64,000 bases of DNA from Escherichia phage 212 (PQ765507); one strand, 5' to 3'; shown: positions 58,643-59,478, counted from the stretch's first letter. The notes: generated from the letters alone by a model not told the origin. Numbers and translations are program-made.

Positions 58643-59002
58643 ATGGTAAGAGTTATCACTTTAGCCATAGGGTTAGTATTCAGCATGGGAGGAATAGCTT
58701 CAGTACAGAGCGACGACAACAACAGCATCATAGAATATGCAACGAGGACGGCTAAAGATTATTGCGCATCAAGCAATGTGGATTGTATAATCCAGTTCAG
58801 TGCCAAGCTCACCGCAGCCTATAAAGATGGTCAAAATGATGTTGAACATACGCTTTTGAAAAAGAATGTATTATCCAACAAATATGAAAAGAAATTATTT
58901 GAAATGGATTGCATTCTATCAAGTGCAAAATATAAAGCGGCCTGCACCAGTATGGTTGACAGGTTAGTGGATTCATATAATAGAGGATTGAACTCTAAAT
59001 GA
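58643..59002 (+). CDS. secreted/periplasmic hypothetical protein
   Basis: N-terminal hydrophobic signal MVRVITLAIGLVFSMGGIASVQS; four Cys. Confidence 0.45.
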   Translation: MVRVITLAIGLVFSMGGIASVQSDDNNSIIEYATRTAKDYCASSNVDCIIQFSAKLTAAYKDGQNDVEHTLLKKNVLSNKYEKKLFEMDCILSSAKYKAACTSMVDRLVDSYNRGLNSK

Positions 59003-59478
59003 TTACCCAGTATATTAAGGGCGATATCGTCGCCCTCTTTCTTCAAGGCAATATTATTGCACATGGTTGCAACTGCTTTCATACAATGGGTTCCGGTGTA
59101 GCTGGACAGTTGGCGAAGGCTTATCCAAAAGTTTTAGAAATAGATAAAACCACTACTGAATACGGTTCTCGTGATAAATTAGGCGATATGTCTATTGTTT
59201 TTAAACATAAGCCTACAGGTTTTGGCATGTGCTATAACTTGTATACGCAATACGAACCAGGCCCTAATCTTGATTATGGTGCTTTAGTAAATTGTATGAT
59301 AGAATTAAATCTACAAGCAGAAACCCTTTTGTTTAAACCGGTAATTTATATTCCTCGTATTGGTTGTGGTATTGCAGGTGGAGATTGGGATAAGGTATCT
59401 CAATTAATTGATATGTTTACTCCTGATATTGATTTAATAGTGGTGGATTATGAAAGCACATTACCCGCATCCGTTTGA
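58999..59478 (+). CDS. macro-domain-like protein (putative ADP-ribose binding/hydrolase)
   Basis: GDIVAL...IAHGCNCFHTMGSGVAGQLAKAYP and distal IGCGIAGGDW resemble macro-domain nucleotide-binding loops; RBS GAGGA. Confidence 0.55.
   Translation: MITQYIKGDIVALFLQGNIIAHGCNCFHTMGSGVAGQLAKAYPKVLEIDKTTTEYGSRDKLGDMSIVFKHKPTGFGMCYNLYTQYEPGPNLDYGALVNCMIELNLQAETLLFKPVIYIPRIGCGIAGGDWDKVSQLIDMFTPDIDLIVVDYESTLPASV

Follow-up and report, generated by a model that had tools for sequence, protein, structure and literature searches.

What does a small macro-domain protein, encoded amid early genes, do for its phage? The question is raised by a 64,000-nucleotide stretch of Escherichia phage 212 (PQ765507), the whole of which is termed the window hereafter, and in which a sequence-only reading had noted a 159-residue product with motifs resembling the ADP-ribose-binding loops of macro domains, proposing for it either the reversal of host ADP-ribosylating defenses or a part in the phage's own modifications. 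The evidence identifies the gene, from its sequence and setting, as the orthologue of tk.4 of T4-type phages, named adfM in T4, and makes it probable (about three chances in four, by analogy with its better-studied relatives) that the product is a stand-alone macro-domain ADP-ribosyl glycohydrolase, which would erase from phage DNA the marks left by DarT2, the toxin of the host DarTG2 system. The gene is thus an already described one, and the earlier finding was right but not new, since the macro-domain nature has long stood in the RefSeq annotation, where T4 Tk.4 carries the label 'A1pp phosphatase motif', and a report of 2025 described the anti-DarTG2 role.

The listing of open reading frames (ORFs) in the window holds an ATG-started frame of 159 codons plus stop that agrees exactly in coordinates and length with the one first noted, and both motifs singled out there are present, namely IAHGCNCFHTMGSGVAGQLAKAYP as residues 20-43 (nt 59056-59127) and IGCGIAGGDW as residues 121-130 (nt 59359-59388). 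That this is a real gene, far from a chance reading frame, follows from its matches to Pfam Macro (PF01661; 33.2 bits against a gathering score of 22, E 5.4e-8, residues 22-136 aligned to positions 2-117 of the 118 in the profile) and to PHROG 335 (E 9e-71), from the 755 homologues of its product at E<=1e-5 in a large protein database, from the 15 columns invariant across the 63 sequences of an alignment reaching down to 39% identity (A1), and from its AlphaFold2 (AF2) model, with a mean predicted local distance difference test score (pLDDT) of 93.2 and a predicted template-modeling score (pTM) of 0.88. The macro-domain call holds by sequence profile as well as by fold: the predicted structure is a three-layer alpha/beta/alpha sandwich that superposes on solved macro domains, with human TARG1/OARD1 as the top Foldseek match (E 9e-10, TM 0.73-0.82). 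The nearest neighbors, by structure and by sequence alike, are all of the TARG1/DarG/SCO6735/Poa1p-like ('ALC1-like') class, with a gap to the MacroD and viral types, and it is to this class that the tk.4 product belongs. It has the glycine-rich loops of the ADP-ribose/diphosphate type together with the conserved Asn (N25, G31-S-G33-V-A35 and G122-C-G124-I-A-G-G128).

The relationship to T4 is equally direct. T4 Tk.4 (NP_049723) aligns with the window protein over 155 residues without a gap (57% identity, 74% positives, E 2e-69); it is of the same size, consists of a single macro domain and has the same H22, N25, Q84 and G124, although 43% of the residues differ and the window protein is longer by four C-terminal residues. 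The order vs.1-vs-tk.4-tk.3-tk.2-tk, and with it the position between vs and tk.3, is common to the window, T4 and Shigella phage SP18, and the listed T4-type records have one copy each, except Av-05 with two places. From the gapless identity, the gene order and the single copy, the gene is therefore the tk.4 orthologue of a T4-type phage. In T4, as set out in a preprint of November 2025 (bioRxiv 10.1101/2025.11.20.689424), tk.4 was the single significant hit when a transposon library was grown on DarTG2-expressing E. coli (HIDEN-SEQ), a clean knock-out of tk.4 sensitized the phage to DarTG2, and the gene was named adfM, its product being the 'anti-DarT factor macrodomain'; the removal of ADP-ribose from DNA by Tk.4 is deduced there without enzymology. 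DarT2 itself ADP-ribosylates thymidines of single-stranded DNA (the second T of TNTC) and thereby blocks phage replication (PMC13309987; PMC11825919). The reversal of a host ADP-ribosylating defense, put forward in the sequence-only reading, is thus borne out by analogy, in that the T4 orthologue is reported to counter DarTG2 (bioRxiv 10.1101/2025.11.20.689424).

How such an enzyme might work can be approached through its active site. Conservation was read from alignment A1 and from a larger set of 121 homologues, and residues were paired in a joint alignment (A3) of the window protein with T4 Tk.4, BT1257 (Bacteroides thetaiotaomicron, PDB 2AFC/2FG1), SCO6735 (Streptomyces coelicolor, PDB 5E3B), TARG1 (PDB 4J5R among others), the DarGs and PhiKZ AdfM. 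The PDB alignments of SCO6735 and Poa1p come from chimeric queries, from which only the pairing of residues in the part derived from the window was taken, and not the E-values; the numbering of the SCO6735 chain in 5E3B is the native one plus 20, a tag offset. Around the first loop, H22, G23, N25, C26, G33 and A35 are invariant in A1 and present in 119-121 of the 121 homologues, with H22 and N25 kept in all 119 sequences that cover these positions. Gln84, which shares a column with SCO6735 Gln85, is kept in 121 of 121, and its pairing is the same in the joint alignment, the profile-to-TARG1 alignment and an anchored pairwise alignment with SCO6735. This catalytic column reads NLYTQ in the window protein and in T4 Tk.4, NMIGQ in BT1257 and in SCO6735, LITK (Lys84) in TARG1, and FPTK in the DarGs of Mycobacterium tuberculosis and Thermus aquaticus (Lys80 in the latter) as well as in PhiKZ AdfM. 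The second loop is almost the same as those of SCO6735 (PRIGCGLAGGTW) and BT1257 (PRIGCGLAGGKW), and the version in the window protein (PRIGCGIAGGDW) resembles that of SCO6735 more than it does T4's own (PRIGAGIGKGNW). With TARG1, the window protein has in common the His as well as the first part of the PRIGCGL loop, but where TARG1 has its Lys84/Asp125 dyad the window protein has Gln84 and Ala126 (the latter column being Ala in 108 and Gly in 11 homologues), and TARG1 has Ser at the Asn25 position.

The four residues H22, N25, Q84 and G124, all of them invariant in the Tk.4 family, correspond to His24, Asn27, Gln85 and Gly128 of SCO6735. The latter enzyme, which has neither the Lys and Asp of TARG1 nor the Lys of DarG, takes thymidine-linked ADP-ribose off DNA and protects against DarT; its activity is abolished by Q85A and lowered by G128E, Asn27 has been proposed to lock Gln85 in a productive rotamer, and His24 and Asn27 have also been mutated and tested (PMC9411070). 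SCO6735 is of the same class as the window protein and, like the window gene, its gene stands alone without a partner toxin, but it is bacterial, DNA-damage-induced as reported (PMC11833690), and not a phage counter-defense gene; BT1257 is a bacterial structural-genomics protein with no known function. At the residue level, the active site of the tk.4 product is of the Gln type, SCO6735-like, and not of the Lys type. Both the tk.4 identity and this Gln-type site lie beyond what the sequence-only reading recognized, and the site is the sole fresh element here, setting the gene apart from DarG and PhiKZ AdfM.

The proposed course of events may be put as follows. The tk.4 product would be made from the tk-vs-regB block of the T4-type phage; DarT2 of the host would use NAD+ to place ADP-ribose on thymidines of single-stranded phage DNA, and replication would be blocked. 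The ADP-ribose would then be held in the macro-domain cleft between loop 1 (G31-A35) and loop 2 (G122-G128), where Gln84, kept in place by Asn25, is predicted to orient the distal ribose so that water can attack it, in chemistry of the SCO6735 type; hydrolysis of the thymidine-ribose bond would yield free ADP-ribose and a restored base, so that replication could proceed. No catalytic lysine would take part in such chemistry, unlike that of DarG, TARG1 and PhiKZ AdfM. We infer that the window protein shares its activity and target with T4 Tk.4 and SCO6735, across 57% identity to the former, and several points weigh against doing so: the support from T4 is genetic and from a preprint; loop 2 reads GCGIAGG in the window and GAGIGKG in T4; identity to SCO6735 is only ~26%, and SCO6735 and BT1257 have ~5-6 more residues in the loop that follows Gln84; carriage of DarTG2 by the hosts of this phage is presupposed; and DarT2-modified DNA may not be the sole substrate, since macro domains are often promiscuous.

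A parallel is offered by gp104 of phage PhiKZ, which was also named AdfM, independently of T4 tk.4, and which removes DarT2-made ADP-ribose from an oligonucleotide in vitro (Cell Rep 2026, PMC13309987). It has the same role as T4 AdfM, that of a phage macro domain countering DarTG2, but it comes from nucleus-forming jumbo phages, is imported into the phage nucleus, and resembles DarG, the FPTK lysine included; its score is 90.7 bits with M. tuberculosis DarG and 133 bits with the PADLOC DarG profile, where the window protein, whose best defense-library match is likewise DarG, reaches 27.6 bits (28.2 bits with NCBIfam DarG). Close kinship between the two was rejected, BLAST similarity being marginal and the structure matches of gp104 being to DarG only. 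In the phage collection, records of the Tk.4 type number 2751 and those of the PhiKZ type 276, the latter mostly jumbo phages. The name AdfM itself is a source of confusion, with two papers applying it to two lineages (PMC13309987; bioRxiv 10.1101/2025.11.20.689424), of which annotators should beware.

The T4 preprint calls Tk.4 DarG-like (bioRxiv 10.1101/2025.11.20.689424), a label that does not fit at the level of residues. In DarG, of which macro-domain structures exist from T. aquaticus (5M31/5M3E), M. tuberculosis (5M3I) and T. africanus (7OMU), Lys80 of FPTK occupies the Gln84 position and Asn the His22 position, the loop is G-x-G-N-G-G-L, and a C-terminal DarT-binding domain is found that is absent from the window protein. 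Membership of the DarG family was likewise rejected for the window protein: it reaches 28.2 bits with NCBIfam NF048014, where the cut-off is 250 and only 141 of the 338 profile positions, all N-terminal, are matched, and it has no catalytic Lys, is a 159-residue single domain, and has vs and tk.3 as neighbors with no adjacent darT. The active site of the T4 lineage instead matches, column by column, that of the orphan bacterial SCO6735/BT1257 group in having His, Asn and Gln with no Lys and no Asp. A tentative picture, which has perhaps slightly less in its favor than against it, is that two unrelated phage macro-domain lineages were independently recruited against DarT2, one of the Lys type and DarG-derived (PhiKZ gp104 and other jumbo phages), the other, much commoner, of the Gln type (T4 Tk.4). 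If true, the T4-type enzyme would have a water-activating, Gln-dependent mechanism, and its lineage would perhaps descend not from an antitoxin but from a bacterial macro domain with a housekeeping or DNA-repair task. At the one bacterial locus examined for it, that of the Pelagimonas homologue P0104, there is no DarT neighbor; the gene stands alone in the chromosome, and hence no toxin-antitoxin origin is visible there. The orphan status of P0104 and SCO6735 fits the recruitment of an orphan macro domain of bacteria, as opposed to DarG, without amounting to proof.

T4 AdfN, the anti-DarTG1 product of gene 30.3, follows the strategy proposed for Tk.4, being likewise an orphan hydrolase of antitoxin-like kind that clears phage DNA of the ADP-ribose added by DarT, but it has the unrelated NADAR fold and acts on the guanosine adducts of DarT1, not the thymidine adducts of DarT2 (PMC11825919); its gene lies outside the window. 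In the unrelated Vibrio phage Brizo (NC_055800), a macro-domain homologue at 102895-103305 is annotated beside a 'ribose-phosphate pyrophosphokinase', a neighbor hinting at a coupling of the macro domain, in some phages, to the recycling of ADP-ribose or NAD, instead of or besides DNA de-ADP-ribosylation.

Other functions have to be weighed against the removal of DarT2 marks. The database label 'phosphatase' or 'A1pp motif', common among these proteins, has its source in a reading by which they would be ADP-ribose-1''-phosphate phosphatases like Poa1p of yeast, acting on a by-product formed when 2'-phosphates are removed from RNA. The His that matches Poa1p His23 is indeed conserved (the roles of His23 and Ser30 being taken from PDB entry titles only), but Poa1p has Ser at the position of the invariant Gln84 (CLFTS as against NLYTQ), its loop 2 differs (PQINSGIAGVPW), the position of its Ser30 is variable in the Tk.4 family (Thr in 70 of 121, as in the window protein), and its match in sequence hardly extends beyond residues 4-78; with the T4 genetics pointing to DarTG2, such a phosphatase is most improbable. 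No better supported is the self-modification raised by the sequence-only reading, by which the protein would serve as a timing device that erases the phage's own Alt/ModA/ModB ADP-ribosylation of host proteins or RNA. Arginine-linked ADP-ribose is not known to be a macro-domain substrate, which speaks against this idea; such linkages are cleaved by ARH-type hydrolases. In its favor, a 2016 paper in the Journal of Biological Chemistry is said to have found that SCO6735 also takes off some protein-linked ADP-ribose. T4-type phages do have three ADP-ribosyltransferases of their own, but Alt, ModA and ModB are arginine-modifying transferases of the cholera-toxin family, with Arg265 of RNA polymerase alpha as the known target of ModA (PMC8120803), which makes the self-modification alternative the less likely one; further, the T4 screen singled out tk.4 only under DarTG2, no plain K-12 phenotype being reported in the available part of the preprint.

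Somewhat more room, within what is still unlikely, can be given to a broader eraser, acting on RNA or other nucleic-acid linkages (e.g., those of CmdT), or to a non-enzymatic blocker that binds DarT2. Macro domains are often promiscuous, T4 was screened against only a few defense systems, and the catalytically dead Q85A form of SCO6735 still inhibits DarT in vitro (PMC9411070), so that binding may contribute to the inhibition of DarT. Against breadth stands the inactivity of SCO6735 on guanosine-, 2'-OH- and 5'-phosphate-linked ADP-ribose (PMC11833690, in its results, which its discussion contradicts on phosphate ends); against mere binding stand the strict invariance of H22, N25, Q84 and G124, which argues for selection on catalysis, and the absence of DarG's C-terminal toxin-binding domain from a protein of 159 residues and one domain. 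Some homologues bear names that would make them MacroD/YmdB-type O-acetyl-ADP-ribose deacetylases and RNase III regulators, as in Joint Genome Institute (JGI) metagenomes (P0005, P0029) and in a phage record (H42) labelled 'RNase III inhibitor'; this assignment was rejected, as the window protein scores 12.9 bits with NCBIfam NF001661, where 291 would be needed, and the type is structurally more distant, and its chance of being true is minute. The removal of DarT2 marks from phage DNA thus stays the preferred function for the tk.4 product.

The setting of the gene in the window (Table 1) is consistent with its placement in the early region by the sequence-only reading, as judged from the gene order. 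This runs regB-vs.1-vs-tk.4-tk.3-tk.2-tk with every gene on the + strand, the neighbors coding for the RegB endoribonuclease, Vs.1, Vs, Tk.3 (DUF7202), a small zinc-binding protein, Tk.2 (DUF7438) and thymidine kinase. Over the 3.2 kb around tk.4, identity is 98.8% to Escherichia phage P479 and 98.7% to SP18 (Straboviridae, Tevenvirinae, Gaprivervirus), and the tk.4 product is 100% identical to a P479 protein.

Table 1. Positions of tk.4, its parts and nearby features, counted from the first letter of the window
Feature	Position	Strand	Description or basis
tk.4/adfM orthologue	58999..59478	+	single-domain macro-domain protein, 159 aa; range includes stop codon
GAGG ribosome-binding site	58983-58986	+	sequence
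ATGA start/stop overlap with vs	58999-59002	+	sequence
Hairpin inside tk.4 ORF	59018..59036	+	8 bp, GC-rich, 20 nt past ATG; AGGGCGAT-ATC-GTCGCCCT
His22-Gly-Cys-Asn25...Gly31-Ser-Gly33-Val-Ala35	59062..59103	+	conserved His/Asn and first ADP-ribose (phosphate) loop
Asn80-Leu-Tyr-Thr-Gln84	59236..59250	+	Gln84 at catalytic-Lys position of TARG1 (K84) and DarG (K80)
T4 middle-promoter pattern in tk.4 ORF	59280-59305	+	MotA box TGCTTTA, 13 nt, TAGAAT
Pro119-Arg-Ile-Gly122-Cys-Gly124-Ile-Ala-Gly-Gly-Asp-Trp130	59353..59388	+	second (diphosphate-binding) loop
Overlap of tk.4 end with tk.3 start	59450..59478	+	29 nt; ORF listing
tk.3	59450-59662	+	DUF7202, 127 bits (Pfam); SP18 annotation
Small Cys-rich protein gene between tk.3 and tk.2	59638-59865	+	Pfam Phage_zn_bind, 101.9 bits
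vs, longest ORF	58643-59002	+	SP18 annotation shorter, from internal Met
vs.1	58098-58640	+	
Gene at vs.4 position	56989-57267	+	92 aa; Pfam Acb2/Tad1 hairpin domain, 57.7 bits (cut-off 27)
NUDIX hydrolase gene	53361-53852	+	60.5 bits; nudE position by SP18 synteny

The start codon of tk.4 is credible in view of the N-terminus MITQYIKGD, which pairs with T4 Tk.4 starting at residue 1, the upstream GAGG and the ATGA overlap with vs, an arrangement at the vs/tk.4 junction that is also kept in T4 and SP18; translation is probably coupled to that of vs, as the overlap suggests. A small hairpin over the upstream GAGG was dropped from consideration, being by eye not conserved in the T4 sequence. The hairpin inside the ORF has a local minimum free energy of about -12.6 kcal/mol and a T-rich run after it, and it is kept in 13 of the 13 examined sequences that encode KGDIVAL (the window, T4 and 11 loci), with synonymous changes limited to its loop and the stretch just past the stem and with one compensatory change, from G-C to A-U, in one locus (L021). 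A 43%-identical orthologue (L028) has a different hairpin of 10 bp at the same place, and from other tk.4 orthologues the element is absent. The covariation is modest: none of 500 shuffles reaches the observed value, a statistic tempered by the relatedness of the sequences. The element may serve attenuation, processing or translation, or else be a by-product of the palindromic Gly-Asp-Ile-Val-Ala codons; it might regulate tk.4 expression, and any link to the function of the gene is uncertain. Between 55500 and 61500, promoter-like sites are not enriched over shuffles (14 found as against 18.4 expected) and terminator-like sites are slightly so (7 as against 4.0), and no expression signal can be claimed for this region. 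The middle-promoter pattern within tk.4 could drive tk.3-tk, but MotA boxes are weak evidence, since the pattern matches 7 times in the window as against 3.1 times by chance, one of the matches being that inside the tk.4 ORF.

The T4 order vs.1-vs-tk.4-tk.3-tk.2-tk.1-tk is matched in the window, save that tk.1 is missing and the zinc-binding gene is extra at a place, between tk.3 and tk.2, where T4 has no gene; this gain and loss amounts to a minor indel polymorphism within the early region. In Vs.1, the N-terminus (MKKVIATLLLTVSMSAHS) looks like a signal peptide, and a lytic-transglycosylase (SLT) match falls below threshold (15.3 bits, the cut-off being 21.3). The longest ORF of vs has a hydrophobic start (MVRVITLAIGLVFSMGGIASVQS), which would be odd for Vs, described as a valyl-tRNA synthetase modifier. 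Some 5 kb upstream of tk.4 lies the NUDIX hydrolase gene. T4 NudE has ADP-ribose among the substrates that it hydrolyzes, so that the NUDIX hydrolase of the window might dispose of the ADP-ribose freed by the macro domain, although this is pure speculation. At the vs.4 position, ~2 kb upstream of tk.4, the Acb2/Tad1 match makes the gene found there a likely orthologue of T4 Vs.4, known as Acb2, a sponge for the cyclic nucleotides of cyclic-oligonucleotide-based anti-phage signaling systems (CBASS); it is thus a probable further counter-defense gene. If it is Acb2, the tk-vs block would hold at least two counter-defense genes within 2.5 kb.

Thus, one more confident assignment can be made among the growing number of phage counter-defense genes. 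Correcting the labels 'phosphatase' and 'hypothetical protein' is of practical use, given the ~2750 sequenced phages with a homologue, e.g., in predicting which therapeutic phages would grow on strains that carry DarTG2. The Gln-for-Lys active site suggests that the two proteins named AdfM are mechanistically distinct, and T4-type phages appear to carry paired erasers, with AdfN for guanine adducts on one hand and Tk.4/AdfM for thymine adducts on the other.
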